Of a stretch of DNA of 64,000 nt, positions 1-61,352 are shown piece after piece (position 1 is the stretch's first letter; each line of letters opens with the position of its first letter). The stretch spans positions 1,313,044-1,377,043 of the forward strand of contig CAVXSS010000002.1 in the NCBI GenBank assembly GCA_963764515.1, given 5' to 3'. Below the pieces are notes generated by a model. The model was given only the letters and a program-made list of their open reading frames with translations. It was not told the origin of the DNA and searched no databases. The position numbers and the translations under genes are program-made. The DNA comes from an uncultured Chloroflexia bacterium (lineage in GTDB: Bacteria > Chloroflexota > Limnocylindria > Limnocylindrales > CSP1-4).

Positions 1-2
1 CC

Positions 3-488
3 CTCGGTGGCCGCGCGTTCACCAAGAGCCTCGCCGACCGGCTGGACCTGCCGTTCCCGCGGGCCGAGGCACTCAAGGTGGATTACGCCCGGGACCTGCC
101 GATCGAGGGTCGCGACACCGTCGCGGCGATCATCGGCGACGACGTCCGGGTCTGGGCCGCGGGCGTGGAGCTGGTCATGGAGGAGCTCTCGGGTGGCGAC
201 CTGCTTCCGGGACGGATCTTCCTGTGCGGTGGCGGCTCACACCTCCCCGAGATCCGCGCGTCGCTCGCATCTGAGGCATTCTGGAAGAGCCTGCCGTTCG
301 CCCGACCGCCCGAGGTGACGGTGATGGCGCCTGACCAGATCGACACGATCTCCGATGCCACTGGGTTGCTCGTGGATCAGCAGGACGTGACGCCACTGGG
401 CCTGGCCTACCAGGCCATCGAGCTCCAGACGACAGAGGACGCCCTCGACGCGGCCCTCCGTCGGGTCCTGCGAGCCATGAAGGTCTGA
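3..488 (+). CDS. ftsA: FtsA-like actin-fold ATPase, C-terminal part (5' end outside window)
   Basis: Frame 3 is open from position 3. GGRAFTKSLADRLDLPFPRAEALKV matches the FtsA motif GGxxxTxDIAxxLxxPxxxAExIK. Downstream LCGGGSHLPEI resembles the FtsA C-domain glycine loop. A PilM-like alternative cannot be excluded. Confidence 0.6.
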   Translation, partial: LGGRAFTKSLADRLDLPFPRAEALKVDYARDLPIEGRDTVAAIIGDDVRVWAAGVELVMEELSGGDLLPGRIFLCGGGSHLPEIRASLASEAFWKSLPFARPPEVTVMAPDQIDTISDATGLLVDQQDVTPLGLAYQAIELQTTEDALDAALRRVLRAMKV

Positions 489-491
489 GCG

Positions 492-2321
492 ATGGCTGGC
501 GGCGTCATCTACCTCGACATCGATGATGAGATCACGTCCGCGGCGGCGCGCATCCGGGCCGTGGACGGGCGACGAGCGGCCATCGTGCTCCCCCTTGGGT
601 CGCGCGTCGCCACGTCGCGCATCAACTTCCGGTTGCTCTCGCGCGACGCGCTGACCCACGAGAAGGGGCTCTCGATCATCGCGGGCGACGCGGCCACTCG
701 AGCCCTGGCGGCATCGGCCGGCCTGCCGGTCTTCAGCTCGGTGGGAGAGTACGAAGCGTCGCTGGGACCCCGGGCTCGGGCCGACGTGCCCGCGGCCGAT
801 ACGCCGGAGCCGGCCGACCTCGCATCTGGGGCGGCTGACCTGGCCGGTGAGACCGCGCGGGTCCCGGTCGCTCCGACGTCGGACGAACCGGCCCCCGGCC
901 CGCCCGTCCAGCAGACCCTCGACGACATGGAGGCAGCCGAGCTGGCGGCCGCCGCGGCCGCGATCCGGACCCCGGTCGCGCCTGCCACGCGGACGTCGCG
1001 GCCGGTGGCCGCCACCTCCGGGACATCGATCCGCGACGTCCCACGCGGGACTTCGCCGCGGGATGCGAGGATCCAGGATGTGCCGGTCCGCGCCGGACCG
1101 GAGGGGCAGGGGATCGGTCGCCGCATCCCGAGGACCCCGTTGCTGGTCGGCCTGGGTGCCATCGCGCTCGTGGTGCTGATCGCCGGCGTCGGTGCCTACC
1201 TGGTGCTTCCGTCGGCAACGATCGTCGTGACGCCAAGGAACGAGTCGGTCGGACCGCTGACCATGACGATCGTCGCGGACCCGACCGCGACGGCCCCTGA
1301 TACGGACGCCAAGGTGATCCCCGCCGATGTGATATCGATCGACGCGACCGCCACGGACACGTTCCCGGCGACCGGCAAGCGGGTCGAGGAGACCAAGGCG
1401 ACCGGCAGCGTGCAATTCGAGAACCTGGACCCGACCTCGGCCAACACCATCGCATCGGGCAGTGTCGTGAGGACGAGTGGCGGCCTCCGCTTCGTGACGA
1501 ACGCGGCGGTGACCGTCGCGCGGGCGGACCTCGTGCCGTCCGACGGCGGGTTCGCGGTCATCCCCAAGTACGCCACCGTCGGCATCACCGCGGTCGAGCT
1601 GGGGCCGGCCAGCAACGTTGGTGCCGACCGGATCACGCAGGTCCCGCGCAATGAGAACGGACAGTTCCTGAAGGTCACGAATCCTGAAGCGACGAGTGGC
1701 GGGAAACGCGATGAGTTCCCCAGGGTCGCCCAGAAGGACGTCGACGCGGCCCTCGCGGCGCTCGAGCCCGCGCTCCAGGCGGACTTCGTGGCCCGCCTGT
1801 CCGATCCATCGATCGCACCGCCCGGTGCCACGGTCTTCCCCGCGACGGGGGTTCTCGGGGTGCCCGTGCCGACCGTCGACCCAGCCAAGCTCGTCGACCA
1901 GGAGGTCGCCACCTTCGATCTCGGCTTGAGCGCGACCGGTACGGTCACGGCTGTCGACCCGGCGCCGGCCAAGGTCATCGCCGCGGATCGGCTGCGTGCG
2001 ACCATCGACGCCGGCCATCGACTGGTCGATGGGTCGATCGAGGTGACGGTCGACCCGGCGGTGGTCTCCGGCGACCAGATCAGCTTCCCGACCAGCGTCA
2101 CGGCCACGCAGGTCGCCATCCTGGACCCGGCCGAGCTCAAGGCGCAGGTCATGGGCCGGCCGCTCGCCGAGGCACGCTCCATCCTCGAGTCGTACGGGAC
2201 CGTCCGGCTCACCGCGTGGCCGGACTGGGTCTCGACGATCCCGACGCTCGACGGGCGCGTCGAGCTGACCCTCGACGAAGCCGTGCCGGTCGAGTCGTCC
2301 GAGCCCACGGCGGCCCCGTGA
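492..2321 (+). CDS. hypothetical bitopic membrane protein (609 aa: cytoplasmic N-domain, Pro/Ala-rich linker, one TM, large extracytoplasmic domain)
   Basis: The ORF starts 3 nt after the ftsA-like stop. There is an ~85-aa N-domain, then a low-complexity P/A/R-rich linker. A TM segment reads LLVGLGAIALVVLIAGVGAYLVL. A ~370-aa C-terminal domain with ordinary composition follows. No recognisable family; it is not FtsZ. Confidence 0.6.
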   Translation: MAGGVIYLDIDDEITSAAARIRAVDGRRAAIVLPLGSRVATSRINFRLLSRDALTHEKGLSIIAGDAATRALAASAGLPVFSSVGEYEASLGPRARADVPAADTPEPADLASGAADLAGETARVPVAPTSDEPAPGPPVQQTLDDMEAAELAAAAAAIRTPVAPATRTSRPVAATSGTSIRDVPRGTSPRDARIQDVPVRAGPEGQGIGRRIPRTPLLVGLGAIALVVLIAGVGAYLVLPSATIVVTPRNESVGPLTMTIVADPTATAPDTDAKVIPADVISIDATATDTFPATGKRVEETKATGSVQFENLDPTSANTIASGSVVRTSGGLRFVTNAAVTVARADLVPSDGGFAVIPKYATVGITAVELGPASNVGADRITQVPRNENGQFLKVTNPEATSGGKRDEFPRVAQKDVDAALAALEPALQADFVARLSDPSIAPPGATVFPATGVLGVPVPTVDPAKLVDQEVATFDLGLSATGTVTAVDPAPAKVIAADRLRATIDAGHRLVDGSIEVTVDPAVVSGDQISFPTSVTATQVAILDPAELKAQVMGRPLAEARSILESYGTVRLTAWPDWVSTIPTLDGRVELTLDEAVPVESSEPTAAP

Positions 2322-2337
2322 GCCGGGGCGATCGCCG

Positions 2338-2835
2338 ATGAGCCGCCTGCTCGGGATCGACCTCGGGGAGCGCCGGGTCGGGATCGCACTGTCCGACGGC
2401 GACGCCTCGCCGGCCAGACCGCTCGTGACCCTGCGGCGGGCCCGGGACATCGCGGGCGACACGGCCGCGCTCCGAGCGCTGGCCGACGCCCATCGCATCG
2501 ACGAGCTGGTCGTCGGGCTGCCGCTCGACATGTCCGGCGGGGAGGGTTCGCAGGCGCTGCTGACGCGCGATTGGGCCGAGGCGGTCGCCGCGGAACTGCG
2601 ATTGCCGGTAACCTTCCGTGACGAGCGCCTGACCAGCCACCTCGCGGAGGATCGCCTCGGTCCCATGAAGCGCGGTCGGTCGGGCGGGCCCCCGTCGCGG
2701 GCGCAGCGTGACGCCTATCGGGCGCGCGTCGATCGCGAGGCGGCGGCCATCGTCCTGCAGGATGAACTCGACACGCGGGCCGGGATCCCTGCCTCCCTGC
2801 CCAGAACCAGCGACCAGACGGAGAACCGCGCATGA
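2338..2835 (+). CDS. ruvX: Holliday junction resolvase-like protein RuvX/YqgF
   Basis: N-terminus LLGIDLGERRVGIALSD is the RuvX/YqgF signature. 165 aa. ATGA overlap with the downstream gene. Confidence 0.85.
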   Translation: MSRLLGIDLGERRVGIALSDGDASPARPLVTLRRARDIAGDTAALRALADAHRIDELVVGLPLDMSGGEGSQALLTRDWAEAVAAELRLPVTFRDERLTSHLAEDRLGPMKRGRSGGPPSRAQRDAYRARVDREAAAIVLQDELDTRAGIPASLPRTSDQTENRA

Positions 2836-4208
2836 CGATCCGCTCCGGCGGACGCCCACGGGATGAGCGTGCTCACCAGGCGCATCCCTACGATCCCGAC
2901 GCGTATGCCACCGACATCCTCCCGCCTGCGGTCGAGCCGGCCCGGCGCGGCGGCCGGAACGGGCGTGGCCCTGGTGGTGGCGCGTTCGGGATCGTCAAGT
3001 TCCTGGTCTTCGCCCTCGTGCTGGCCACGCTCGTCCTCGTCGTGGCGCTCACGGCCCTGCGGCCCGTCGTCAACAACGCCATCCTCGGCTGGGCCGCTGA
3101 CAACCCGGCCGCCCTCTCGATGCCGTTCGTGAGCGACATCGTCCGCGAGGACCTCGGCGACTCGTTGACCGCGCCGGTCTCCAGCGACCCCACCCAGGTC
3201 GAATTCGTCGTCCAGGACGGCGACACCGCATCGACGATCGGAGCGCGCCTGAAACAGCAGGGCCTCATCCGTGACGCCCGCGCCTTCGTCTTCATCGCCG
3301 TCGAGCGCAACCTGTCGTCGCACCTGCAGCAGGGCACGTTCCTGCTCCGCAAGAACATGGTCCCCAACGACATGGCGACGGCGCTGCTCGATCCGCCCGC
3401 GGTCCCCTACGTGGACCTCGGCCTGCGCACCGGCCTGCGGCTGGAGCAGATCACGGCCAAGCTCCAGACGTTGCCCCTCCAGATGGACGTCCACGAGTTC
3501 TACGACCTGGTGACCTCGCCGCCCAAGGAGCTCATCGACGACTACCCGTGGTTGAAGAAGATCCTGAGCGACAAGAGCGTCCCGGCGCACCCCACGCTGG
3601 AGGGCTTCCTCTGGCCGGCGAACTACAAGGTGCTCCCGGACACCACGCCCGAGGAGCTCGTCCGGCTGATGCTCGACAAGTTCTACGCGAACGTCGGTGC
3701 CGACCGGATCGACGTCCCTGCCGCACGGGGCCTGTCGTTCTACCAGGTCCTCTCCCTCGCCTCGATCGTCGAGCGCGAGGCCGTGCTCGACGATGAGCGC
3801 CCGAAGATCGCCGGCGTCTACCAGAACCGCATCGACGGTCTGCCCGGCATCAAGAACAAGATCCTCAATGCCGACCCGACGGTCATCTGGGCGAACGATT
3901 CCGTCGAGCTCTCGAAGCTCGACTTCGACTTGTGGCAGAAGTACCTGTTCTGGGGGCCGCCGGGTGTCCCGATGAAGGACGTCGTCGTGCCGCCGGAGCT
4001 AGCGGGATACCAGACCTACCTGAACCCCGGGCTCATCCCGGGCCCGATCGCCACGCCGACCCTGCCCTCGATCGATGCCGCCCTCCAGCCGGACACCGCG
4101 GACAAGTACCTCTACTTCGTGGCGATCCCCGACGGCGGCGGCGCGCACTCGTTCGCGAAGGACAACGCGGCATTCCAGAAGCTCCTCAAGGAGTACGGCT
4201 ACATATGA
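2832..4208 (+). CDS. mltG: endolytic murein transglycosylase MltG (YceG family)
   Basis: N-terminal TM anchor and a YceG-like domain of ~330 aa. Conserved position after ruvX, as in actinobacteria. Confidence 0.8.
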   Translation: MTIRSGGRPRDERAHQAHPYDPDAYATDILPPAVEPARRGGRNGRGPGGGAFGIVKFLVFALVLATLVLVVALTALRPVVNNAILGWAADNPAALSMPFVSDIVREDLGDSLTAPVSSDPTQVEFVVQDGDTASTIGARLKQQGLIRDARAFVFIAVERNLSSHLQQGTFLLRKNMVPNDMATALLDPPAVPYVDLGLRTGLRLEQITAKLQTLPLQMDVHEFYDLVTSPPKELIDDYPWLKKILSDKSVPAHPTLEGFLWPANYKVLPDTTPEELVRLMLDKFYANVGADRIDVPAARGLSFYQVLSLASIVEREAVLDDERPKIAGVYQNRIDGLPGIKNKILNADPTVIWANDSVELSKLDFDLWQKYLFWGPPGVPMKDVVVPPELAGYQTYLNPGLIPGPIATPTLPSIDAALQPDTADKYLYFVAIPDGGGAHSFAKDNAAFQKLLKEYGYI

Positions 4209-5443
4209 GCGGTCGGCTGCCCGAGCCGGCTGACTTCGCCGTCGCGCCGTCGGGCGGCCAGCGCCGGGCCTGGTCGGAGTCGGACCGGGCGGCGAGGCCC
4301 CAGCGCCTGGCGCGCCTGCGGGCGCGGCTCGTCGAGGCGGGCGTCGACGCCTACTTCGGCGTCCGGCCCGAGCACATGCGCTACCTGACCGGCTTCTCAC
4401 TCGGTGAAGGTGAGGAGAAGGTGGCCGGCTCCTCTGGCCAGTTCCTCGTGAGCGGGGACGACCTGCTCGTGCTGGCTGACTCGCGCTACACGATCCAGGC
4501 CCATCGCGAGGCGCCCGACGCTCGAGTCGTCGACGTGTACCACGACCTGCCGGCGCGATGGCCCGAGCTCTTGGCCTCGCTCGGGGCACGGCGGGTGGCC
4601 CTGGAGGCGGGGTTCGTCTCGCACGCGACCTGGCGGCAGCTGTCGGCGGCCACGCCCCACGTCGAGCTGGTCCCGGTGGAGGGCTGGGTGGAGGAGGACC
4701 GGGCGACGAAGGAGCCCGCGGAGGTGGAACGCATCGAGGCGGCCTGTGCCGTCGCCGATCGCGCCCTCGCGACGCTCCTGCCGGAGATCCGGCCCGGCGT
4801 GACCGAGGCGGTGCTGGCACTCCGGCTCGAATGGCTGATCCGGACCGGCGGCGCGGAGTCGCTGGCCTTCGACGTCGCGTGCCTGTCCGGACCGGAGGCG
4901 GCCCTGCCGCACGGCACGCCTGGCGATCGTTCCGTGCTGGCGGGCGCGGTCCTGCTGTTCGACTTCGGGGCGCAGGTCGCGGGATACCGGAGCGACATGA
5001 CCCGGACGCTCTTCATCGGCGAGCCGGCGGCACGCGATCTGGACGTCTACGAGCTGGTCGCCCGCGCCCAGTCGGCGGCCATCGAAGCGCTCGAGACCGC
5101 GGTGGCCGGCGGTGCGGGTCGCGATGGCGGCCCGCTGCTCCCGAGCGGCAAGGCGATGGACGCCGTCGCCCGCGGGGTCATCGAGGCCGCCGGTCACGGC
5201 GAGCACTTCGGCCACGGGACCGGGCACGGCATCGGCCTGGCCACCCACGAATCGCCGAGCCTGGGCACGTCCGCCCCGGACACCGCCCTGCCGAGCCCGA
5301 CGGTGTTCTCGGTCGAGCCGGGCGTCTACCTCGAGGGCGAGACGGGGGTCCGCGTCGAGGACCTGATCGCGTTGGACGCGGCCGCCGGCCAGGTCCGTCG
5401 TCTCACCCAGTTCCCGCGAGAGGTCCTCGTCGTCGGGGGCTGA
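4205..5443 (+). CDS. pepP: Xaa-Pro aminopeptidase (M24 family)
   Basis: C-terminal HGTGHGIGLATHESP and EPGVYLEG...GVRVED metal-binding motifs of the M24B family. Creatinase-like N-domain. ATGA overlap with the mltG stop. The table ORF is longer; the start was chosen at the ATG overlapping the mltG stop. Confidence 0.8.
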   Translation: MSGRLPEPADFAVAPSGGQRRAWSESDRAARPQRLARLRARLVEAGVDAYFGVRPEHMRYLTGFSLGEGEEKVAGSSGQFLVSGDDLLVLADSRYTIQAHREAPDARVVDVYHDLPARWPELLASLGARRVALEAGFVSHATWRQLSAATPHVELVPVEGWVEEDRATKEPAEVERIEAACAVADRALATLLPEIRPGVTEAVLALRLEWLIRTGGAESLAFDVACLSGPEAALPHGTPGDRSVLAGAVLLFDFGAQVAGYRSDMTRTLFIGEPAARDLDVYELVARAQSAAIEALETAVAGGAGRDGGPLLPSGKAMDAVARGVIEAAGHGEHFGHGTGHGIGLATHESPSLGTSAPDTALPSPTVFSVEPGVYLEGETGVRVEDLIALDAAAGQVRRLTQFPREVLVVGG

Positions 5444-5477
5444 CATGGCCCGGACCGACCACTACGCTGTCAGCGCC

Positions 5478-6065
5478 ATGGCACGAGATCTCCTGGGCTT
5501 CGTGCGCTGGCCGGGGAGATGGTGGATCGTCGCCGCGGTCGTGCTGCTGGTCGGCGCCTGCGACTCGTCGGGTGGCAGCGCGTCGACGTCCTCCGAGCCC
5601 ACCGTGGCGTGCATCGGGGTGCCGCAGGCGCCATGCGACCAGGCGGTGGCCTCGCTGGAAGGTTCGTTCGGGGCGCCTGTCGTCCAGATCACCGTCGCGT
5701 GCACCGTCGCGGCGTGCACGCCGACCGAGGGCCAGGTCAACATCGACATGCTCCTCGCGGACGGCCGGCGCGAATCGTCGGGTTATGGCTACGGATCCGC
5801 CCAGCCCCAGCCGGTGCAGGTCGTCCCGCCGGTCCTCACCGTCGCGCCGATCTGCCTCGGCGTGCCCTTCGTCATGTGCAAGGACATGGCGGAGTCGTCG
5901 ATCCAGGACGGGGTGCCCGGCGCGGCGAGACCGCCGATCGCGAGGATCACCGTCCGCTGCACCGGCAGCTGCACGCCGACCAAGGGCGAGGGGCAGACCC
6001 GCATCGACTACGTCGATGGGACGAATTCGACCTCCTCCTGGGGCTACGAGAGCAGCGGCGGCTGA
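5478..6065 (+). CDS. putative lipoprotein with internal Cys-containing tandem duplication
   Basis: Signal peptide plus lipobox LLVGAC. Two ~60-aa repeats share C..VP..C.......ITV.C......CTPT.G......Y spacing. The start (5445 or 5478) is uncertain. Confidence 0.5.
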   Translation: MARDLLGFVRWPGRWWIVAAVVLLVGACDSSGGSASTSSEPTVACIGVPQAPCDQAVASLEGSFGAPVVQITVACTVAACTPTEGQVNIDMLLADGRRESSGYGYGSAQPQPVQVVPPVLTVAPICLGVPFVMCKDMAESSIQDGVPGAARPPIARITVRCTGSCTPTKGEGQTRIDYVDGTNSTSSWGYESSGG

Positions 6066-6167
6066 CCCGGGCCGCCTCGTCGGTCTGGTACGATCGCGGA
6101 CGAACCACCCCGACCGATCCACCGGCGTCGCCATGTCCCGCGACCGCCGTCGAGGAGCCAATCCGAC

Positions 6168-6725
6168 ATGATCAGCACCGGCGAACTCAAGAAGGGCGTC
6201 GCCATCGAGCTCGACGGTGAGCTCTGGCAGATCCTCGACTACCACCACATCAAGATGGGCCGCGGATCGGCCCAGGTGCGCATCACGCTGCGCAATATCA
6301 AGCGCGGCCAGACCGTGGAGCGCTCGTTCCAGGCCGGGACGAGGTGGCCGCGGGCCTCGATGGAGAAGCGCCCGGTCCAGTTCCTCTACCGCGACGGCGA
6401 CGACCACCACTTCATGGACACCGACACGTACGACCAGTTCATCCTGACCGGCGAGCAGCTGGGCGAGACGGCCCAGTACCTCAAGGACGGGATGACGCTC
6501 GACCGGACCAGCTACCAGGGCGAGACGATCGGCGTGGAGTTGCCGGTCACGGTGGACCTGCGGGTCGCCGAGACCGAGCCGGGCTTCGCGGGTGACACGC
6601 AGACCGGCGCCCGCAAGAACGCGACGACCGAGACGGGCCTCGTCGTGGTCGTGCCGATCTTCGTCGAGACCGGCGACACGATCCGCGTCGACACGCGGAC
6701 CGGGGAGTACCAGACCCGGGTCTGA
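6168..6725 (+). CDS. efp: elongation factor P
   Basis: MISTGELKKGVAIELDGELWQILDYHHIKMGRGSAQVRITLRNIKRGQ is canonical EF-P. 185 aa. Confidence 0.95.
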   Translation: MISTGELKKGVAIELDGELWQILDYHHIKMGRGSAQVRITLRNIKRGQTVERSFQAGTRWPRASMEKRPVQFLYRDGDDHHFMDTDTYDQFILTGEQLGETAQYLKDGMTLDRTSYQGETIGVELPVTVDLRVAETEPGFAGDTQTGARKNATTETGLVVVVPIFVETGDTIRVDTRTGEYQTRV

Positions 6726-6781
6726 CCGGCGGAGACGCGGCCCGACTCGGCCGATCGCGTCGCCTCGCTACCATCAGCGCC

Positions 6782-8131
6782 ATGGAACCGCTGCCCGCCG
6801 TCAACCCGCTCGTTCCCGGCACATTCGGCGTCCGGATCCTCGGCGTCAGCGAGGTCGCGAAAGCCGTCAGGGCCGCCGTCCGAGAGGATCCGCGCCTGGC
6901 CGACTTGTGGGTCGAGGGCGAGATCGGGCGCGTCACGATCTCGTCGGCCGGCCACGCCTACTTCGCGCTCAAGGATGAGCGCAGCCAGCTCCAGTGCGTC
7001 TGGTTCCGCGACGACCGGCTGCGCTCGGCGTTCGAGGCCCAGGTCGGGCTGCGCGTCGTCGTCCACGGCCGGATCGACCTGTTCGAACCGCAGGGCGCGC
7101 TCCAGCTGTACGTCGAATCGATCCAGCCCGCCGGCGTCGGCGATCTCGCGCTCCGCTTCGAGGAGCTCAAGGCCCGGCTCGCCGCCGAGGGCCTCTTCGA
7201 GTCCGAGCGCAAGCGCAAGCTGCCGGGCCGGCCGACCGTCATCGCGGTCATCACGAGTCCGACGGGCGCCGTCTGGAAGGACATCGCCACCGTTCTCGGC
7301 CGGCGCTGGCCGCTGGCCCGCGTGGTCCTCGTCGCGACCAAGGTCCAGGGGGCCGACGCCCCGGAGAGCATCGTCTCGGCGTTCCGCCGGCTCGAGCGCC
7401 ACTGTGAGGATCTGGTGCGAGTTGGCCGCGCGGGGGACGCGCCGCAGGTCACGATCCTCGCGCGTGGCGGCGGCTCGCTCGAGGACCTCTGGTCGTTCAA
7501 TGACGAGCGCGTCGTGCGGGCCGTCGTCGGGCACCCGATCCCGGTGGTATGCGGGGTCGGGCACGAGGTGGACGTGACCCTCGCGGACTTCGCGGCGGAT
7601 GTCCGGGCGCCTACCCCGTCCGCCGCCGCGGAGATCGTCGTGCCCGACCGGGCCGAGATGTCCGCGGCACTCCGCCGCGCGGGTGCGCGCCTGGCCTCGG
7701 TTTCGGCCGGGCGTTTGGCGGTCGCGCGCAACGAGCTCGCGGTCGAGCGCCGGGCTCTCGAGCAGGTCAGCCCTGCCGCACGGCTGGTCGCCTCCCGCGA
7801 GCAGGTCGGACTGCTGTTCGATCGAGCGACGCGCGCACTCGTCGCGCGCCTGAACCACGACCGCGCCCGCCTCGACCGCGCGGCTTCGACGTTGCCGCGC
7901 CTGACCGCGGCGACGCTCGCCGGGGCGCGCGCGAATCTCGACGCATCGGCGGCGGCGCTGGCGGTGCTCGGACCGCAGGCCACCCTCGACCGCGGCTACG
8001 CCATCGTCCGGCGCCGGGCCGACGGCGCGATCGTGCGGGGACCGTCGGATGCCCCTGGCCGGACCGGTCTCGACATCCGCGTCGCCGATGGTTCGATCGA
8101 GGCCACCGTCGACGATCAGGCCGACGGGTAA
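6782..8131 (+). CDS. xseA: exodeoxyribonuclease VII large subunit
   Basis: OB-fold N-terminus and catalytic core (VITSPTGAVWKD, ARGGGSLEDLWSFNDE). 449 aa. Confidence 0.9.
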   Translation: MEPLPAVNPLVPGTFGVRILGVSEVAKAVRAAVREDPRLADLWVEGEIGRVTISSAGHAYFALKDERSQLQCVWFRDDRLRSAFEAQVGLRVVVHGRIDLFEPQGALQLYVESIQPAGVGDLALRFEELKARLAAEGLFESERKRKLPGRPTVIAVITSPTGAVWKDIATVLGRRWPLARVVLVATKVQGADAPESIVSAFRRLERHCEDLVRVGRAGDAPQVTILARGGGSLEDLWSFNDERVVRAVVGHPIPVVCGVGHEVDVTLADFAADVRAPTPSAAAEIVVPDRAEMSAALRRAGARLASVSAGRLAVARNELAVERRALEQVSPAARLVASREQVGLLFDRATRALVARLNHDRARLDRAASTLPRLTAATLAGARANLDASAAALAVLGPQATLDRGYAIVRRRADGAIVRGPSDAPGRTGLDIRVADGSIEATVDDQADG

Positions 8132-8141
8132 GCAGCTCGCG

Positions 8142-8279
8142 ATGGAGTACGTGGTCTTCGCGCTTGTCGTGGTCGTCGTCGCGGCCGTCGGGATCCGCGT
8201 TGGTATGCTGCTGGCGCCGCGGATCGACCGAGTCGCCGACCGACTGACCGACCCGGACGACGAGGAGCCGCATGACTGA
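8142..8279 (+). CDS. small hydrophobic protein (45 aa) between xseA and xseB
   Basis: ATG at 8142 with a hydrophobic core VVFALVVVVVAAVGIRVGMLLA. Overlaps the xseB start. No homology evidence; it could be spurious. Confidence 0.25.
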   Translation: MEYVVFALVVVVVAAVGIRVGMLLAPRIDRVADRLTDPDDEEPHD

Positions 8280-8544
8280 CACCGCCGAATTGCGAGTGGA
8301 GGATCTCGCGTTCGACGACGCCCTCGCGGATCTCCAGCGGACCGTGGCCGAGCTCGAGGCGGGCGGCCACCCGCTGGAGCGCGCGCTCGCGCTCCACGAG
8401 CGCGGCACCGCGCTCATCGAGCGTTGCGACCGCCTGCTCAACGACGCCCAGCTCCGGCTCCAGCAGCTGGTCCAGCGGGCCGCGGGCGGGTCTGAGTTGC
8501 GCGACGTCAAGCCCGACGAGGCCACCGAAGAGCCGGGGGCCTGA
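8272..8544 (+). CDS. xseB: exodeoxyribonuclease VII small subunit
   Basis: ~90-aa helical protein (FDDALADLQRTVAELEAGGHPLERALALHERG) directly after xseA. Confidence 0.85.
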   Translation: MTDTAELRVEDLAFDDALADLQRTVAELEAGGHPLERALALHERGTALIERCDRLLNDAQLRLQQLVQRAAGGSELRDVKPDEATEEPGA

Positions 8545-8551
8545 CCGGCGC

Positions 8552-9091
8552 GTGACCCGGTATGTCGCCCTCCTTCGAGGGATCAACGTCGGGGGCACCA
8601 AACGCGTCGCCATGACGGACCTGCGCTCCGCTCTCGGATCGCTCGGCTTCGAGGACGTCTCGACCGTCCTGCAGAGCGGCAACGCGGTGTTCAGCGGTCC
8701 CGGCGGGAAGGCCAGTGAGTTCGAACGCTCGATCGAGCAGGTGATCGCCACACGGCTCGCGATGTCGGTGAAGGTCCTCGTCCGGACAGGCGCCGAACTC
8801 GCGGCGATCATCGAGGCGAACCCACTGCCCGAGGCGGTCGCGGAGCCGTCGAAGCTGCATGTCGCGTTCCTCTCCGCGCAGCCCGATCCCGGGCGGTTCG
8901 ATACGCTCGAGGCGGCAAGATCCGAGCGCGAGGCCGTCCGACCGGGCGAACGAGCGCTCTACATCTGGTACCGCGACGGCGCCGGCCGTTCGAAGCTGAC
9001 CAATGACCTCCTCGAACGGCGGCTCGGCGTGACCGCGACTTCGCGCAATTGGAATACCGTCACGAAGCTGTCGGACCTCGTGACCACCTGA
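8552..9091 (+). CDS. DUF1697 family protein
   Basis: YVALLRGINVGGTKRV N-terminus is typical of DUF1697. 179 aa. Confidence 0.7.
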   Translation: MTRYVALLRGINVGGTKRVAMTDLRSALGSLGFEDVSTVLQSGNAVFSGPGGKASEFERSIEQVIATRLAMSVKVLVRTGAELAAIIEANPLPEAVAEPSKLHVAFLSAQPDPGRFDTLEAARSEREAVRPGERALYIWYRDGAGRSKLTNDLLERRLGVTATSRNWNTVTKLSDLVTT

Positions 9092-9249: not shown

Positions 9250-11295
9250 TTGACCTTGCCGATCCTGCCGAACCTCCATGGGCCTGCCGACCTGCGTGGC
9301 CTGTCGGAGGTCCAGCTCGCCCAGCTCGCCCTGGAGATCCGCGAGACGATCATCTCGACCGTCTCGGTCACGGGCGGCCATCTGGGCTCGTCGCTCGGCG
9401 TCGTCGAACTCACGCTCGCGCTGCACCGGCTGCTGGAATCGCCACGCGATCGCATCGTCTGGGACACCGGGCACCAGGCCTACCCGCACAAGCTCTTGAC
9501 CGGGCGCTTGGAACGCTTCGGGACGCTGCGCCAGCTCGACGGGGTCGGCGGGTTCCCACGCCGCTCCGAATTGCTGCATGACGTGTTCGATGGCGGCCAT
9601 GCCGGCACTGGCCTCTCGATCGCCGAGGGCCTGGCCGAGGCGCGCGACGTCCGGCACGGTCTCGAGCGCATCGCGGTCGTCGTCGGCGACGCGGCCCTGA
9701 TGAGCGGCCTCTCGCTCGAGGCCCTCAACGACATCGGCCAGCGCAAGACCCAGATGCTCATCGTCGTCAACGACAACGAGATGTCGATCAGCCCGACGGT
9801 CGGTGCCTTCTCGAAATACCTGAGCCAGATCAAGCTTTCGAGCGCGTGGCGCCAGGGCAAGAGCGCGTACGACCGGACGGTCGAGCGGATCCCTGTGGTC
9901 GGTCCATCGGTGCTCGAGCTCTCGAAGCGCCTCCGCCAGTCGGTCGTCAAGTTCGCCCAGCCGGGCCAGCTGTTCGAAGACCTTGGGATCACCTACATCG
10001 GTGTCGTGCCCGGTCACGACCTCCATGCATTGCTCGGGACGCTGGCTGCGGCGCTGGCCAATCCCGGTCCGACGATCGTGCACGTTCGGACGCAGAAGGG
10101 TCGCGGCTATCGGCCGGCCGAGGCCGACCAGGTCGGCTTCCATGGGGCGGCGCTGCCGCCGATGGCGCCGCCGGTCAACGGCGCCGATGGCGGCGGGACG
10201 GCGGCCGCTGGCAGCGGGGATGCCCCGGTCCTTCCCATGCCCACCGAGTCGATAGCCGACGACGCCGCACCACCGACGCGGGCCTTCGAGGCGCCGACGA
10301 AGCACCCGAACTACACGGCCGTCTTCGCGGCCGAGCTGATCGAGGCGGCTCGAGAAGACCGGCGCATCGTCGGGATCACGGCCGGCATGCCGACCGGGAC
10401 CGGCCTCTCGAAGTTCCAGGCCGAGTTCCCCGACCGCTTCTTCGATGTCGGCATCGCGGAACAGCACGCGGTGACGTTCGCGACCGGGCTCGCGCTGGGC
10501 GGCCTGCGACCGGTCGTCGCCATCTACTCGACGTTCCTGCAGCGGGCATTCGACCAGACCGTGCACGATGTCTGCCAGAACGATCAGCCGGTCCTGATCG
10601 CCGTGGATCGTGCGGGGCTCGTCGGCGAGGACGGCACCAGCCACCAGGGGATGTTCACGTTGTCGGCTCAGCGACAGCTGCCCAACCTGGTGGTCGCCTC
10701 TCCCCGTGATGAGCAGGAGCTGCGCTCGATGGTCCGGACGGCGTTCAGCCAGGATCATCCGTTCGCGCTGCACTACCCGCGCGACGCGGGCTTCGGGCTG
10801 CCATCCGTGGAGCCTGAGATCCTGCCGATCGGCCGCGGCGAGGTCCTTCGGGAGGGCCACGACCTGTTGTTCGTCGGCTTCGGGCCGATCGTCGCACGGG
10901 CGGTGGAGGCCGCGGACGCACTCGAGGCCGAGGGCTGGTCGATCGGGGTCATCAACGCCCGGTTCGCGAAGCCGCTCGACGGTCAGCTCATCCTCGACCA
11001 GGCCCGCGGTAAGCGACTCCTTGTCACGTTCGAGGAGAGCGTCGCGATCGGGGGCTTCGGCAGCGGCGTCCTCGAGGCGCTCGAAGAGGCGCGACTCACG
11101 GACCCGGCCCTGCGCGAGCTGGCCGTGCGGGTCATCGGCATCCCGGGCGATCGATTCGTCGACCACGGCTCGGTGGCGGACCTGCGCCGCGTCCTCCGCC
11201 TGGACGCCGCGGGTCTCACCTCACAGGTCCGCGACACGCTCGCGGTGCTCCAGGCCACGCCGGCCGCGCGTGAGGCGCCCAGCGCCGGCCGGTAG
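9250..11295 (+). CDS. dxs: 1-deoxy-D-xylulose-5-phosphate synthase
   Basis: TPP-binding GGHLGSSLGVVELTLALH, transketolase-like pyrimidine and C-terminal domains. TTG start at 9250 after an AAGGGAG RBS. The table ORF from 9049 carries an implausible N-extension. Confidence 0.9.
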   Translation: MTLPILPNLHGPADLRGLSEVQLAQLALEIRETIISTVSVTGGHLGSSLGVVELTLALHRLLESPRDRIVWDTGHQAYPHKLLTGRLERFGTLRQLDGVGGFPRRSELLHDVFDGGHAGTGLSIAEGLAEARDVRHGLERIAVVVGDAALMSGLSLEALNDIGQRKTQMLIVVNDNEMSISPTVGAFSKYLSQIKLSSAWRQGKSAYDRTVERIPVVGPSVLELSKRLRQSVVKFAQPGQLFEDLGITYIGVVPGHDLHALLGTLAAALANPGPTIVHVRTQKGRGYRPAEADQVGFHGAALPPMAPPVNGADGGGTAAAGSGDAPVLPMPTESIADDAAPPTRAFEAPTKHPNYTAVFAAELIEAAREDRRIVGITAGMPTGTGLSKFQAEFPDRFFDVGIAEQHAVTFATGLALGGLRPVVAIYSTFLQRAFDQTVHDVCQNDQPVLIAVDRAGLVGEDGTSHQGMFTLSAQRQLPNLVVASPRDEQELRSMVRTAFSQDHPFALHYPRDAGFGLPSVEPEILPIGRGEVLREGHDLLFVGFGPIVARAVEAADALEAEGWSIGVINARFAKPLDGQLILDQARGKRLLVTFEESVAIGGFGSGVLEALEEARLTDPALRELAVRVIGIPGDRFVDHGSVADLRRVLRLDAAGLTSQVRDTLAVLQATPAAREAPSAGR

Positions 11296-11563: not shown

Positions 11564-12322
11564 TCACCGTCCGAGGCGAACACCAGGTGGCGGGTGTCGC
11601 ATCAACGTCGCCATGGTGCCGTGGACGTTCATCCAGACGATGCCGGCTCCGGGCCATGGCGCGTCGGGTGACGTCAGGGCCGCGATGACCTCGCCGGTGC
11701 GAGCCGGATAAGCAGCGGCCAGCGTGGCCTCGAACTGACGGGCAAGATCACGCGTCGTTGTCGTGGTACGCAGGATCAGGAGCCGCGAGACCTCCCGTGA
11801 ACCCTCGCCTCGGTCCTTGGAGGCAAGCTGCTCCCGAAGCCCGTCCGCCTTCTCGGCGCTCCACCGGATCTGCTGCTCCAGGCGTCGGAGGTCCGAGTAG
11901 GCCTCGCTCGCGACGTTGACCGCAGCACCTTCGTCGGTCAGCACGAGGTCGATGACGCCGCGCGCCGGATGGCTGATGGGGACCTCGAGATCGACACGCC
12001 ATCGCGGGTCGAGCGCACGCAGGAACGCCTCGACCATCGGCGCCTGGAATCGATCGTGAAGACGCGGTCCAGCGCCTGCGAAGTATCTCAGGCTCAGGTC
12101 GGCACCGAGCGCGATACCGATGGCGATGAGGCGCTCGAGCGACGGCTGCAGGAGACCTGCTTCGATCCGGCTGATCGTTGACGGATCGACGTCGACGACG
12201 GCGGCAAGGGCCCTCATGGAGACGTTAGCATCGACACGCAGCCGACGAACGTCCTCTCCGACCTGCAGGGTGAGCCGCCTCGACCGGCGGGCCGTCTCGA
12301 TCGTGACCTGGGTGGGGGTGGT
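11564..12322 (-). CDS. XRE-family helix-turn-helix transcriptional regulator
   Basis: N-terminal HTH (LRVDANVSMRALAAVVDVDPSTISRIEAG) plus a C-terminal domain, as in actinobacterial XRE/DUF5753-type regulators. Start MTTTPTQV chosen. The C-terminal tail runs into the repeat cluster. Confidence 0.6.
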   Translation of the reverse strand, partial: TTPTQVTIETARRSRRLTLQVGEDVRRLRVDANVSMRALAAVVDVDPSTISRIEAGLLQPSLERLIAIGIALGADLSLRYFAGAGPRLHDRFQAPMVEAFLRALDPRWRVDLEVPISHPARGVIDLVLTDEGAAVNVASEAYSDLRRLEQQIRWSAEKADGLREQLASKDRGEGSREVSRLLILRTTTTTRDLARQFEATLAAAYPARTGEVIAALTSPDAPWPGAGIVWMNVHGTMATLMRHPPPGVRLGR

Positions 12323-12450
12323 CGTCATCGACCGATGACACCATAGGCCGCTTAGCTGCGAGTTGCGGCGAGCGCCAGCATCGTGAACCGCAAGCCGCTG
12401 ACCGCACTTGAGGTGAGCCCGGGTGAAGCGGGCTGTGCCACGATAGGCGG

Positions 12451-12630
12451 GTGAGTCCGGCCGACAGCGCGACGACGAACGCAAAGACCAGGCGGGTCCG
12501 GCTCGACCAGTTGCTCGTGGAGCGGGGGTTGGTCGAGTCGCGCAGCCGCGCCCAGGCGCTCGTGCTGGCCGGCAAGGTCCGGGTGGGGGGGGCGACGCCG
12601 CCCGTCACGACCGCAAGCCCGGCGACCTGA
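12451..12630 (+). pseudogene. tlyA: tlyA 5' segment (S4 RNA-binding domain) in a different frame from the methyltransferase domain
   Basis: Frame 1 encodes [32 protein letters not shown] (TlyA S4 domain) and ends at TGA 12628-12630 after a G8 run at 12586-12593. The methyltransferase domain continues in frame 3. Confidence 0.55.
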
Positions 12631-12653
12631 TCGCGACGACCACCGACATCGAC

Positions 12654-13352
12654 GTGGACGAACCCGAGCCCTTCGTCAGCCGGGGCGGCCACAAGCTCGC
12701 GGCCGCGCTCGATGCCTTCGGGATCGATCCGGCCGGGCTCGTGTGCCTCGACGTCGGCGCCTCGACCGGCGGCTTCACGGATGTCCTGCTGCAGCGCGGT
12801 GCGAGCCGCGTCTACGCGCTCGACGTGGGACGCGGGCAGCTTGCCGAACCGCTGCGCCGCGAGCCGCGCGTCGTCTCGATGGAGCGCACGAACGCACGCA
12901 CCCTGACCTCGACGACGCTTCCCGAGCCGATCGCGCTCGCCACGATCGACGTCTCGTTCATCTCCCTGGACCTCGTCCTCAAGCCGGTCCTCGCGACGCT
13001 GGCCCATGCGGGCCACATCGTCGCGCTCGTCAAGCCGCAGTTCGAGGCGGGACGCGGCCGCACCGATCATGGCGTCGTCCGCGACCCGGCCGTGCACGCA
13101 GAGGTCCTGGAACGCATCGTGGATCGCGCCCAGGCGCTCGGTCTCGGGACCCGTGACGTCATCGCCTCGCCGCTCCTGGGGCCGCAGGGGAACCGCGAGT
13201 TCTTCGTTCACCTCGCGCCCGGACCCGGTTGTGCCGATGCCCCCAAGCGGATCGCGACCGTCACGACGCCACCGGAAGGCACGCCACCAGAAGGGACGCA
13301 ACGAGAAGGGACGCAACGAGAAGGCACGCAACGTAAAGGCACCCACACATGA
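12654..13352 (+). CDS. tlyA: 16S/23S rRNA (cytidine-2'-O)-methyltransferase TlyA, FtsJ-like methyltransferase domain portion
   Basis: VSRGGHKLAAALDAFGID...CLDVGASTGGFTDVLLQRGASRVYALDVGRGQL is the TlyA SAM-methyltransferase signature. ATGA overlap with nadK. Confidence 0.75.
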   Translation: MDEPEPFVSRGGHKLAAALDAFGIDPAGLVCLDVGASTGGFTDVLLQRGASRVYALDVGRGQLAEPLRREPRVVSMERTNARTLTSTTLPEPIALATIDVSFISLDLVLKPVLATLAHAGHIVALVKPQFEAGRGRTDHGVVRDPAVHAEVLERIVDRAQALGLGTRDVIASPLLGPQGNREFFVHLAPGPGCADAPKRIATVTTPPEGTPPEGTQREGTQREGTQRKGTHT

Positions 13353-14194
13353 CCGTCCAGCGGATCGGTTTCGCCTACAACCCCACGATCGAGGCAGCCG
13401 TCGAACTGAGCGCACGGGCGACGGGCTGGTGCCAGATGCGCGACATCGACGAGTGGCAGGCGCCGGCCGACGACATCGACGTCCTGCTGCGCGAGCTGCC
13501 CACGACCGACGCGCTCGTCGTCCTCGGCGGCGACGGCACCTTCCTGCGGGCGGTCCGCGCCGTGGCCGAGGTCGATGTCCCCATCCTCGGCATCAACCTC
13601 GGCAAGGTCGGCTTCCTCTCGAAGGCGGAGGCCGGCGACCTGGGGGCCGTGCTCGAACACATCCGAACCGGCGAGTACCAGATCTCCGAGCGGATGGCCC
13701 TCGAGGGGGTCATCCTTCGGGACGGCCATCCGATCGACGGCGAGCGCCACGTCGCGCTCAACGATTTCGTCGTGGCGCGCGGTTCGCTGGCGCGCGTCTG
13801 CCGGTTCGATGTCGCGATCGACGACTCCCATCTCGCCACGTTCATCTCGGACGGCCTGATCATCGCGACGCCGACGGGCTCGACCGGCTATTCGTTCTCG
13901 GCCGGCGGTCCGATCGTCGATCCGGTCAGCCGGAACATCGTGGTCACGCCCATCGCCGCCTACCTCTCGGCCATTCGCTCGGTCGTCGTGAGCCCGCAAC
14001 AGGTCGTGCGCTGTCGCGTCGTCGACGCGCACGAAGCCCTCGTCTCGATCGACGGTCGCGTCGACATCCCGATCAAGGTCGGCGATCTCGTGGAGGTCCG
14101 GGCCGTGGAACGGCCGATCCGCCTCATCGAACCGACGGGCGCGCAGCCCTTCTGGGACCTGCTGCGCCACAAGGTCGCCCTGCTGCCGTCGTGA
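13349..14194 (+). CDS. nadK: NAD kinase
   Basis: GGDGTFLRA motif and NAD-kinase fold. 281 aa. GTGA overlap with recN. Confidence 0.9.
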   Translation: MTVQRIGFAYNPTIEAAVELSARATGWCQMRDIDEWQAPADDIDVLLRELPTTDALVVLGGDGTFLRAVRAVAEVDVPILGINLGKVGFLSKAEAGDLGAVLEHIRTGEYQISERMALEGVILRDGHPIDGERHVALNDFVVARGSLARVCRFDVAIDDSHLATFISDGLIIATPTGSTGYSFSAGGPIVDPVSRNIVVTPIAAYLSAIRSVVVSPQQVVRCRVVDAHEALVSIDGRVDIPIKVGDLVEVRAVERPIRLIEPTGAQPFWDLLRHKVALLPS

Positions 14195-15915
14195 TCGGGC
14201 GACTTCTTGAGCTCGCGGTCACCGACCTGGCGCTCATCGAGCGCCTGCGGCTCTCGCTCGAGCCGGGCTTCAACGTCCTCACGGGGGAGACCGGCGCTGG
14301 CAAGAGCCTGATCATCGATGCGCTCGGGCTCGCGCTCGGGGCACGGGCGGATACGTCGCTCGTGCGGCACGGCGCCGAGATCGCACGGGTCGAGGCACTC
14401 TTCGATCGCCTGCCGGAGCCGCTCATCGCGGTTCGCGAGGTGGCCGCGGGCGGACGCTCGACGGCACGCGTCGACGACGAGACGGTCACCGCGGCCCGCC
14501 TGGCCGACGAGGTCGGGCCGCTCGTCGAGATCCACGGCCAGCACGACCAGCAGCGGCTCCTCGACGAGCGCTGGCAGCGCGACCTCCTCGACGGGTTCGG
14601 CGGGCACGCAAGCCTGCGGACGGCCATGGCCGATGCCGTGGAGGCGTGGCGAGCCAACCGGGCTGCCCTCGCCGAGCTCATCGGCGATCCCCGTGAGCTT
14701 GCCCGCCGCCTCGAGCTCCTCGAGTACGAGGCCGGGGAGATCGCCTCAGCCCGCCTCCGCCCCGGCGAGGCCGACGAGATCCGCGCCCGTCTCGCGGCCG
14801 CCCAGCACGGGGAGGCCATCGCGCGGGGCTCGGCGGCCGTCCACGAGGCCCTGACCGCGGAGAATGGGGGAGCGCGCGATGGGATCGCGGTCGCCCTGCG
14901 CGAGGCGCGGGTCGTCGCACGGGTGGACCCACGGTACGAACCGCTGGCGGAACGGCTGGCCGGCCTCGAGGCGGAGCTGACCGATGTGGCCGCCGAGGCC
15001 CGGGCGCTCGCCGAGACCGTCGAGCACGATCCGGCCGCGCTGGCCGCGCTCGAGGAGCGCCTCGGGACGATCTACTCGCTCGAACGCCGCTACGGCGACG
15101 GGGAGGCCGCGGTCATCGCCCACGGCGAACGCGCCCAGGCCGAGGCCGAGCGCCTGCATGGGCTCGATGGCGAACGGGCGCGACGCGATGCCGACGATGC
15201 CCGCCTGCTCGGTGCGATCGGGCGAGCGGCCGACGCCCTGTCCGCGGCTCGTCGCACGGCCGCGGGCGCGATGACCGCCGCTGTCGGCGCGGCGCTCGCG
15301 GACCTGGGCTTCGCCGAGGGCGTGTTCGAGGTCGCCCTGGGCCGCCGGATCGCCGGTCCCGCGGAGCCGGCGGTGGAGCTCGACGGCGACGCGGTCGCGT
15401 TCGATGCGGCGGGGGTCGATGAGGTCGTCTACCGATTGGCCCCGAACCCGGGAGAGCCGCCGCGTGCGCTGGCCAGGATCGCGTCGGGTGGCGAACTGTC
15501 CCGGGTCGCACTCGCCATCAAGCAGGTCCTTGCCGAGGCCGACGAGACGCCCACGCTCGTGTTCGACGAGGTCGATTCGGGCATCGGTGGCCGGAGCGCC
15601 GACCCGGTCGGACGGAGCCTCTGGACGCTGGCCCGCCGCCACCAGGTCCTGTGCGTCACGCACCTGCCCCAGATCGCCGCCCACGCCGATGCCCAGTTCC
15701 GCATCACGAAGCGAGAACGCGACGGCCGCACGGTCACCGAGGTCGAGCGCCTCGATCGCGAAGGCCGGATCGTCGAGCTTGCCCAGATGCTGGGGAGTGG
15801 CACGACCGGCCCCGACGGGACCGCCGGCCCGACGGGCGCGGCCGGCCTCGCCGCCGCACGCGAACTCCTCGACCGGGCCGAGGCATGGCGCGGCGGGGTG
15901 GCGACGGCCGGCTGA
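14191..15915 (+). CDS. recN: DNA repair protein RecN
   Basis: N-terminal Walker A (FNVLTGETGAGKSLIIDAL), long coiled coil, C-terminal signature/Walker B (FDEVDSGIGG). GTG start overlapping the nadK stop. Confidence 0.9.
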   Translation: MIGRLLELAVTDLALIERLRLSLEPGFNVLTGETGAGKSLIIDALGLALGARADTSLVRHGAEIARVEALFDRLPEPLIAVREVAAGGRSTARVDDETVTAARLADEVGPLVEIHGQHDQQRLLDERWQRDLLDGFGGHASLRTAMADAVEAWRANRAALAELIGDPRELARRLELLEYEAGEIASARLRPGEADEIRARLAAAQHGEAIARGSAAVHEALTAENGGARDGIAVALREARVVARVDPRYEPLAERLAGLEAELTDVAAEARALAETVEHDPAALAALEERLGTIYSLERRYGDGEAAVIAHGERAQAEAERLHGLDGERARRDADDARLLGAIGRAADALSAARRTAAGAMTAAVGAALADLGFAEGVFEVALGRRIAGPAEPAVELDGDAVAFDAAGVDEVVYRLAPNPGEPPRALARIASGGELSRVALAIKQVLAEADETPTLVFDEVDSGIGGRSADPVGRSLWTLARRHQVLCVTHLPQIAAHADAQFRITKRERDGRTVTEVERLDREGRIVELAQMLGSGTTGPDGTAGPTGAAGLAAARELLDRAEAWRGGVATAG

Positions 15916-33077: not shown

Positions 33078-33776
33078 GTGAGCAGTCTCGGCGGTCGCCT
33101 CGCCTCCATCGCGGTCGGGCTCGCTACCGCGATCGTCATCGTCGCGGTGGCGATCGTGCCGTTCCTGACGCCGGCCTGGGTCGGCTTCGAACAGGGACGC
33201 GCGCAGGCCCAGGCGTGGACCGGCTATGGCGCCGCGGACCTCCAGACCGCCACGAACGCCATCCTCGCCGACCTGGTCATCGGGCCGCCCGATTTCGATG
33301 TCGCGGTCGCGGGTGCTCCCGTCCTCGACGAACGCGAGCGCGATCACATGCGTGACGTCCGGACGGTGTTCGGGGGTCTGGCCATCGCGGCCGCGATCTC
33401 GGTGGTCCTGCTCCTCGTGGTGGCCGTGCGCCGTCGCGATCCCACCGCGACGTGGCGAGCCGCGAGGCGCGGCGCGACCGGCCTGGCCGTCGCGGTGGTC
33501 AGCCTCGGAGTCGTCGCACTGGTCGCGTTCGATACCCTGTTCGAGGTCTTCCACGAGGTCCTGTTCCCGGCCGGTTCCTACGACTTCGACCCGGCCACGG
33601 AACGGCTCGTCCAGCTCTTTCCGTTCCAGTTCTGGCAGGAGTCGGCGATCGCGGTGGGCGTCGTCATCGTGGTGATCTCGGCGCTGGTGGCGATCGTCGC
33701 CCACCGGCGCGAGGTCCGGCCATCCGCACGGACCTCGACCGACCCGAGCGCGGCACCGGTCGCGGAGCCCGGATGA
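33078..33776 (+). CDS. integral membrane protein, DUF1461/TIGR01906 (Lit-like) family
   Basis: Two TM segments flank a conserved domain. 232 aa. GTG start. Confidence 0.7.
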   Translation: MSSLGGRLASIAVGLATAIVIVAVAIVPFLTPAWVGFEQGRAQAQAWTGYGAADLQTATNAILADLVIGPPDFDVAVAGAPVLDERERDHMRDVRTVFGGLAIAAAISVVLLLVVAVRRRDPTATWRAARRGATGLAVAVVSLGVVALVAFDTLFEVFHEVLFPAGSYDFDPATERLVQLFPFQFWQESAIAVGVVIVVISALVAIVAHRREVRPSARTSTDPSAAPVAEPG

Positions 33777-60677: not shown

Positions 60678-61352
60678 ATGCGCGTTCGACGCAACCAGCT
60701 GACGCTCGCGGCCGTGGCATTCGTGCTCGGCGTGCTGGTCGTGGTCCAGCTGCGAGCCCAGGCCGGGAGCTCGGGGCTCGCGGCGCTCTCCACCCAGGAC
60801 CTCACGGTCTTCGTCGCGAGCGTGAACGAGCGGAACGACCAGCTGCGGGCGGAGATCGCGTCGCTCGACCGGGAGCTGGCCACGCTGACCTCGAACCAGG
60901 ACCGCGGCGAAGCCTCGATCGACGAGATCCGGGCCGACCTCCGTCGCGTGCGGGCCTACGCCGGGCTCGACCCGGTCGTGGGACCCGGCGTGACCATCAC
61001 GGTCAGCGGCCCCATCGACGGCCACGGTCTGGAGGACCTGATCAACGAACTGCGCGACGCGGGGGCCGAGGCGATGGCCTCGGGCGACGTGCGGCTGGTC
61101 CCAGCCGTCGTGGCGGTCGGGCCTCCCGGTGGCGCTACCCTGGACGGGACCAAGCTCGAGGACACATTCACGCTCGATGCCATCGGCGCATCGGAGCAGC
61201 TGACAGGGTCGCTGACGCGTTCGGGCGGCGTCATCGCACAGCTCGCCGCGACGCAACCGGAGGTCGTGGTCACGGTGACCCCGATGGACCACCTGGAGCT
61301 GCCCGCCACGAAACGGTCCCTGGTCCCGGTCAACGGTCATCCGCGGCTTTGA
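60678..61352 (+). CDS. DUF881 domain-containing membrane protein (second paralog)
   Basis: Same architecture (TM, coiled coil, VVGPGVTITVSGP, DVRLVPA). A tandem DUF881 pair occurs in actinobacterial and Bacillus division clusters. Confidence 0.7.
   Translation: MRVRRNQLTLAAVAFVLGVLVVVQLRAQAGSSGLAALSTQDLTVFVASVNERNDQLRAEIASLDRELATLTSNQDRGEASIDEIRADLRRVRAYAGLDPVVGPGVTITVSGPIDGHGLEDLINELRDAGAEAMASGDVRLVPAVVAVGPPGGATLDGTKLEDTFTLDAIGASEQLTGSLTRSGGVIAQLAATQPEVVVTVTPMDHLELPATKRSLVPVNGHPRL

Follow-up and report, generated by a model that had tools for sequence, protein, structure and literature searches.

Is the tlyA gene at the head of a tlyA-nadK-recN cluster broken in the bacterium that carries it, or only in the assembly through which it became known? 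The question arises in a 64-kb window (the whole stretch of DNA analysed here, 64,000 nt long with a G+C content of 70.8%) from an uncultured, Limnocylindria-like member of the Chloroflexota, where the coding sequence of tlyA leaves its reading frame at a run of eight G. Judged by its sequence, the locus is an otherwise intact tlyA, which would encode an S4-like N-terminal domain (NTD) and an FtsJ-type 2'-O-methyltransferase domain and stands first in the cluster. We consider it probable (roughly 0.6) that the one-base deficit at 12585-12592 is a consensus error of long-read metagenome assembly, in which case the cell would possess a base that the assembly lacks.

A tlyA gene interrupted at a G8 run

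The 5' piece of the gene (ORF1; 12451-12630, plus strand) is an open reading frame in frame 1 whose translation, from GTG 12451 to TGA 12628-12630, comprises 59 residues, the first 46 of them native to the S4-like NTD and the last 13 out of frame. Residues 16-47 match positions 1-32 of the 48-position Pfam S4 profile (PF01479, E 3.8e-9), positions 1-30 of the TlyA model TIGR00478 are matched as well, and both the GTG start and the N-terminal MSPAD... are common to related database proteins (P0002-P0016). The frameshift site is the G8 run itself (12585-12592, plus strand), at which relatives read GGGGG-A-GGG (codons GTG GGG GAG GGC). Beyond it, the 3' part of the gene (12593-13352, plus strand) lies in frame 3 and contains the S4 remainder, the linker (EPFV), the class I, FtsJ-type methyltransferase domain and a C-terminal tail, terminating at TGA 13350-13352. 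As encoded, this part yields ORF2 (12654-13352, plus strand), a 232-aa product counted from the first available start, a GTG located 24 nt past the ORF1 stop; ORF2 retains the linker and the entire FtsJ domain (PF01728, profile 1-179 of 181, E 5e-40).

The coding signal takes no account of that start codon. By codon-usage segmentation, frame-3 coding begins at 12585, exactly at the homopolymer and 69 nt upstream of any start, so that the stretch between the G run and GTG 12654 evolved as coding sequence; in keeping with the change of frame, GC3 switches phase across the run, being 0.88 in one phase before it and 0.93 in another after it. With one base inserted at the run, translation yields a protein of 300 residues, which covers all of TIGR00478 (positions 1-228 of 228) at 232.2 bits, compared with a cut-off of 185.8 bits and with as-encoded scores of 28.5 for ORF1 and 185.1, just below the cut-off, for ORF2. 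This repaired protein aligns end to end with Mycobacterium tuberculosis TlyA (7S0S_B, E 1e-57) and was aligned with 5KS2 too, and in tblastn its residues 46-300 map to 12585-13349 in frame 3. Its score against the equivalog model NF049952 is 168 bits, under the cut-off of 250.

Because adding a single base yields a full-length TlyA match, the split is confirmed: the ORF and frame-3 layout, together with the 232-bit repaired match, bears out the initial annotation in its claim that a single nucleotide is missing at the G run. The open reading frames and Pfam matches likewise agree with its description of an ORF1 that starts at GTG 12451, carries the S4 motif and ends at TGA 12628, and of a methyltransferase part in frame 3; the run, which it had placed at 12586-12593, is shifted by one position, the actual G8 being 12585-12592. 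An uninterrupted reading frame, which is a feature of the TlyA family, is absent here, as coding passes from frame 1 to frame 3 at 12585-12592, and no paralogous tlyA was found by tblastn within the 64-kb window.

The break lies within the S4-like domain

In the cryo-EM structure of M. tuberculosis TlyA, the NTD spans residues 1-59 and the interdomain linker residues 60-63, with helices at 6-14 and 20-28 and a second beta-strand at 52-54; the first strand is printed as '32 to 24', presumably 32-34 (PMC9168844). The frameshift aligns to approximately residue 36 of that protein (7S0S), after helix 2 and strand 1 and about 24 residues ahead of the linker (residues 60-63 in M. tuberculosis numbering). 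This alignment and the published domain map (PMC9168844) put the break inside the S4-like domain, at about residue 36 of 59, and not between the S4 and methyltransferase domains as had been annotated. ORF1 thereby lacks strand 2, the counterpart of Lys41 and, overall, around 40% of the S4 fold.

Which base is missing

The closest relatives at the DNA level are three loci whose TlyA is 81-85% identical in protein sequence (L081-L083) and four JGI metagenome contigs (L084-L087), the latter retrieved with a metagenome search pattern that accepted either GAG or any tract from G7 to G11 at this position. The seven sequences share the reading ...GGC AAG GTC AGG GTG GGG GAG GGC GAC GCC GCC CG..., with flanks otherwise near-identical to the window; within the metagenome scan, each of the 4 matching contigs had G5-A-G3 despite the latitude of the pattern, and no G8 or G9 allele was encountered. 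Most simply, then, the missing base would be the A of a Glu GAG codon, G5-A-G3 having become G8; alternatively, a GAG>GGG substitution may have produced G9, from which one G was subsequently lost (G9>G8). Since the seven relatives read G5-A-G3, the G8 run arose with the lesion, or through a substitution specific to this lineage, and does not represent a conserved tract. Residue 47 differs among relatives (E, D, G, A, T, I or Q, with VGGGD in locus L003), so that either repair, to GAG or to G9, gives a plausible protein. The extra G by which the initial annotation proposed to mend the gene does restore TlyA, but it is only one option, the GAG of the relatives making a missing A the simplest.

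The same picture extends to more distant homologs. When the repaired protein was searched by tblastn against 83 related loci, the primary tlyA was in a single frame in all 82 that span the break site (the other, L042, covers residues 110-286 only), and neither a G tract nor a frameshift was present at this site in any of the 82 loci or the four metagenome contigs. Among the matches listed in a scan of GTDB genomes, no tlyA copy exceeded 75% identity, and the protein collection held no second sample of the same species, its next-best match to the ORF2 fragment being 85% identical.

One of the related loci (L075; CAVZAM010000042.1, MFD01872.bin.1.196) harbours two tlyA copies, at 5001-5750 and 9622-10372, 4.6 kb apart, a pair that may have arisen in assembly or reflect a true duplication. 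Its second copy was considered as an instance of a recurrent break point and rejected, as its frameshift sits elsewhere.

An otherwise pristine gene in an intact neighbourhood

Both genes downstream are intact. nadK, for NAD kinase (13349-14194, plus strand; Pfam NAD_kinase and NAD_kinase_C), is 89% identical to its relatives over 281/281 residues, and recN (14191-15915, plus strand), which starts with GTG, is 91-92% identical over 574/574. The tlyA stop and the nadK start overlap in an ATGA (13349-13352), the nadK stop and the recN start in a GTGA (14191-14194), and the order tlyA-nadK-recN is the same in relatives, whose coordinates imply 4-nt overlaps; the annotated cluster, with its overlapping stops and starts, is therefore indeed conserved. 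Upstream lies a divergent gene for an XRE-type HTH regulator (11600-12328, minus strand; Pfam HTH_3 and HTH_31), the position of which is taken in L082 by a 283-aa minus-strand gene between dxs and tlyA. On a larger scale, xseB, dxs, nadK, recN and xerD are collinear with those of L082 and L083 and 87-92% identical over their whole length, and xseA, dxs, nadK, recN and xerD have full-length Pfam domain matches. Codon-usage segmentation of the 64-kb window detected no other split gene among about 61 coding segments. Suspected splits at 17766, 33719, 50074 and 60606 turned out to be ordinary gene boundaries, explained by an ATGA overlap, a TTG start, and complete DUF881, Peptidase_M50 and DUF951 genes.

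Several of these regions have features of their own. A complete DUF1697 gene (8552-9088; PF08002, 1-137 of 137) sits between xseB and dxs, and the corresponding gap is only about 130 nt in L082 and L083, which makes it a lineage-specific insertion. By analogy with the gene calls of L081 and L083, 16911-18446 would encode a bPH_2/SHOCT-type membrane protein; behind it, without a change of frame, comes a Peptidase_M50 gene that probably starts at TTG 17802. Visual inspection of its translation suggests that the gene at 33719-34927, which overlaps its upstream neighbour through an ATGA, is for an M50 peptidase of the site-2 protease-like type whose C-terminus carries CBS-like repeats. Both members of a tandem pair of DUF881 genes (59884-60672 and 60678-61352) are complete, with a first junction that looks like a frameshift in coding-potential plots, and the pair precedes a small Cys-rich ORF (61369-61620) and a large membrane-transporter-like gene.

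Within tlyA itself, the SAM motif DVGASTGGF is retained and the K/D/K/E positions (HKL, DVSF, VKPQFE, NREF) are conserved relative to M. tuberculosis TlyA. Ka/Ks between the window gene and its relatives is 0.18-0.23, compared with 0.12-0.15 for the intact relatives among themselves and 0.08-0.14 for the neighbouring genes. With its catalytic motifs kept, a Ka/Ks of about 0.2 and all of its neighbours intact, the gene carries a lesion that is either very recent or artefactual.

At its other end, tlyA bears a 15-nt tandem repeat of about 4.5 copies (13266-13342, plus strand; TRF), encoding a C-terminal tail of roughly 26 residues (PPEGT-PPEGT-QREGT-QREGT-QRKGT) that is missing from the 81-85% identical relatives, which end in ...TVSTP. 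Its sequence suggests that a tandem array has recently expanded, in frame, at the 3' end of the gene. The codons of the tail are mostly A-ending, atypically for a 71% GC genome, and the coding-potential segment ends at 13268. The repeat has left the ATGA overlap with nadK in place.

The only long homopolymer of the window

The G8 at 12585-12592 is the sole run of at least seven identical bases in the 64 kb, in which only five runs reach six. Dinucleotide shuffles predict 6.7 +/- 3.2 G8/C8 runs in the window, compared with the one observed; such runs are thus avoided here, and the single one falls on the frame break. Among the 87 related loci, G7 and G8 runs also occur in frame inside intact genes, and some G7 runs were flagged with GC3-phase shifts, so that G/C runs of seven or more, tried as markers of frame breaks in that set, proved uninformative.

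Consensus error as the leading explanation

If the deficit arose in the assembly, either the lone A of GGGGG-A-GGG would have been dropped or a true G9 (GAG>GGG, Glu>Gly) would have been called as G8. The true site would read GGGGGAGGG or G9, the gene would be intact, and in the organism it would encode a normal rRNA cytidine-2'-O-methyltransferase.

The provenance of the sequence is consistent with such an error. ORF2 is 100% identical to a database protein (P0001) that is found in NCBI and ENA, with a longest contig of 1,443,977 bp; from its location on a 1.44 Mb MAG contig of an uncultured soil lineage we infer a long-read assembly, and with it the platform. The relatives are uncultured Chloroflexota (Limnocylindria/Limnocylindrales), and among the GTDB matches listed many are Microflora Danica MAGs, which derive from Nanopore-only data assembled with Flye and polished by one round of Medaka (PMC12313526). 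Nanopore consensus sequences are known to remain weakest at long G/C runs. In Nanopore assemblies, gene calls are fragmented chiefly by homopolymer indels; accuracy at the read level varies at homopolymer lengths of 8-9, for C especially, and a coverage of about 40x is needed to reach a near-finished consensus without polishing (Sereika et al., PMC9262707).

Apparent frameshifts are indeed common in the long-read contigs of this lineage, to judge from two of the closest relatives, L081 and L083, which were classed as long-read by the style of their contig names. L081 (ENA ERZ25039555 contig_32004, 1-8831) has at least six one-base frameshifts in 8.8 kb, affecting xseA (twice), dxs, recN (twice) and xerD, and L083 (ERZ25039555; 240-300) has one, in xseA; L082, a 7.9-kb JGI contig whose assembly type is not established, has none. 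Where the L081 and L083 errors were inspected, the contig has one nucleotide more than the window, in a short GC context, a mode other than that of the tlyA deficit. As a point apart, L081 indicates that some public long-read contigs of this lineage are heavily affected by indel error.

A consensus error explains why a lone lesion, in an otherwise pristine and constrained gene, coincides with the only long G/C run of the window, and why relatives show neither a frameshift nor a tract at the site; it also accords with the long-read provenance deduced above, and one residual indel per 64 kb, at the worst homopolymer, fits a well-covered long-read consensus. Other considerations pull in the opposite direction. 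A genuine knock-out is biologically plausible, as tlyA is dispensable in several bacteria; should the truth be G5-A-G3, the loss of a non-homopolymer A is less typical than a miscounted run length; the cleanness of the rest of the window implies a low indel rate of the assembly, and hence a small prior for any given error; and the errors of L081 and L083 are of another mode, while R10.4 consensus sequences resolve the vast majority of homopolymers shorter than 11 (Sereika et al., PMC9262707).

A possible genuine and very recent loss of function

The principal alternative, possible although distinctly less probable than a consensus error, is a genuine and very recent loss of function, in which the A of GAG, or one G after GAG>GGG, was truly lost in the population. 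The S4 domain would then be truncated after 46 residues, leaving the cell without TlyA-dependent rRNA 2'-O-methylation, which, by analogy with mycobacteria, could lower its sensitivity to the tuberactinomycins (capreomycin/viomycin-type peptides) of soil actinomycetes. Given the G8 tract, the loss would in principle be reversible, as slippage to G9 could restore the frame. The deposited sequence does have the lesion, and the 232-aa product is called as such in both databases; the window contains no indel errors elsewhere, which makes its consensus generally trustworthy; the variability of position 47, exemplified by the VGGGD of L003, renders a G9 intermediate with Gly plausible; and Ka/Ks is slightly raised in the comparisons that involve the window (0.18-0.23 versus 0.12-0.15). 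There is also a precedent, since M. tuberculosis is known to become capreomycin-resistant through loss of function of tlyA, frameshifts included (PMC9168844, PMC8767347 and PMC4076439).

Set against this, the gene has no second lesion, its catalytic motifs are undecayed and its Ka/Ks is far below 1, so that any inactivation would have to be extremely young. The lesion falls on the one long G/C homopolymer present, which is precisely the kind of place at which long-read consensus goes wrong, and a stop this early in the first gene of a translationally coupled tlyA-nadK-recN cluster might carry a cost. The lack of a G tract or frameshift in the 82 loci and four metagenome contigs, moreover, gives no sign of a maintained contingency tract. 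An improbable extension of the loss-of-function reading would make the G8 allele a reversible TlyA switch of a soil Chloroflexota population, off at G8 and on, with Glu47Gly, at G9. Were this true, a subpopulation lacking the ribose methylations of H69 and h44 would tolerate tuberactinomycin-type peptides made by neighbouring actinomycetes, in an environmental counterpart to the homopolymer phase variation of M. tuberculosis. Sequencing error, phase variation and inactivation, which the initial annotation offered without ranking them, were thus the right candidates, but the evidence favours a consensus error among them and lends no support to a maintained phase-variable tract.

Improbable alternatives: recoding or a functional split gene

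Programmed recoding, in the form of a -1 ribosomal frameshift at the heptamer G_GGG_GGG (12585-12591) or of transcriptional slippage along the G run, would produce full-length TlyA from the G8 allele and make the 59-aa product a regulated alternative. The run is divided in frame 1 as G GGG GGG G, on which tRNA-Gly in both the P and the A site would re-pair perfectly after a -1 slip to give ...VRVGGGDAAR..., that is, the G9 protein. The slippery site is, however, not conserved, relatives being single-frame with GGG GAG GGC in the closest seven, and no stimulatory RNA structure, which would be expected 5-9 nt downstream of a slippery site, was detected in the 80 nt that follow the run (12593-12672); these fold worse than shuffled sequences (MFE -15.3, compared with an average of -20.0 for the shuffles; z = +1.64). 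G/C-only heptamers are, besides, poor -1 slippery sites in bacteria, and known cases of transcriptional slippage rely on long A/T runs. All of this makes recoding very improbable.

Even less credence attaches to a functional split gene, in which a truncated S4 fragment and a methyltransferase domain re-initiated at GTG 12654 would act as two polypeptides: the GTG does lie close behind the ORF1 stop (24 nt), with the linker and the whole FtsJ domain in ORF2, but ORF1 is without the second beta-strand, is short of some 40% of the S4 fold and ends in 13 unrelated residues, no Shine-Dalgarno-like sequence can be read 5' of GTG 12654, the frame-3 coding signal already sets in 69 nt ahead of that codon, and no relative is split. 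Taken together, recoding and a functional split would account for the locus with only a very slight probability.

Relation to known systems and significance

In domain architecture, the window gene agrees with the TlyA family (TIGR00478), represented by the M. tuberculosis (7S0S/5KYG) and S. thermophilus (3HP7) proteins: it has the same S4-like NTD, short linker and class I FtsJ-type methyltransferase, and it occupies the same place, heading the tlyA-nadK-recN cluster, as the tlyA genes of its Chloroflexota relatives. It is set apart by the -1 nt frameshift within the NTD and by the 26-aa C-terminal tail that stems from the 15-nt tandem repeat. At the level of sequence it is accordingly a member of the TlyA family in all features except the continuity of its reading frame. 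TlyA enzymes target C1920 of 23S rRNA and, in the case of type II enzymes, also C1409 of 16S rRNA; what the initial annotation says of these two sites and of capreomycin is mycobacterial knowledge.

Both leading explanations invoke phenomena that are already well known. In comparison with the homopolymer indels of long-read (Nanopore/PacBio) assemblies, the lesion is the same single-base error at the longest G/C run of its region, on a megabase MAG contig (PMC9262707), but it departs from a typical homopolymer miscount in that the run may stem from loss of an interrupting A, and the platform is here a matter of deduction. With the tlyA null alleles of M. tuberculosis it shares a frameshift in tlyA at a G/C homopolymer, which would leave the cell without the enzyme and might be undone by slippage, as in the homopolymer-tract phase variation exemplified by the C7 tract of M. 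tuberculosis glpK (PMC6667613). It differs from those alleles, and from glpK C7, in belonging to an uncultured soil Chloroflexota, in the lack of conservation of the tract among relatives and in showing no evidence of drug selection or of polymorphism in tract length.

In summary, neither a long-read homopolymer artefact nor a tlyA null allele opens a new question, and the biological weight of the locus is small. If the deficit is an artefact, it provides a routine case for frameshift-aware annotation of gene calls in long-read MAGs, and the public 232-aa 'FtsJ-only' protein would really be a whole TlyA; if it is real, it would add another natural tlyA null allele, of modest interest for the intrinsic tolerance of soil bacteria to tuberactinomycins.
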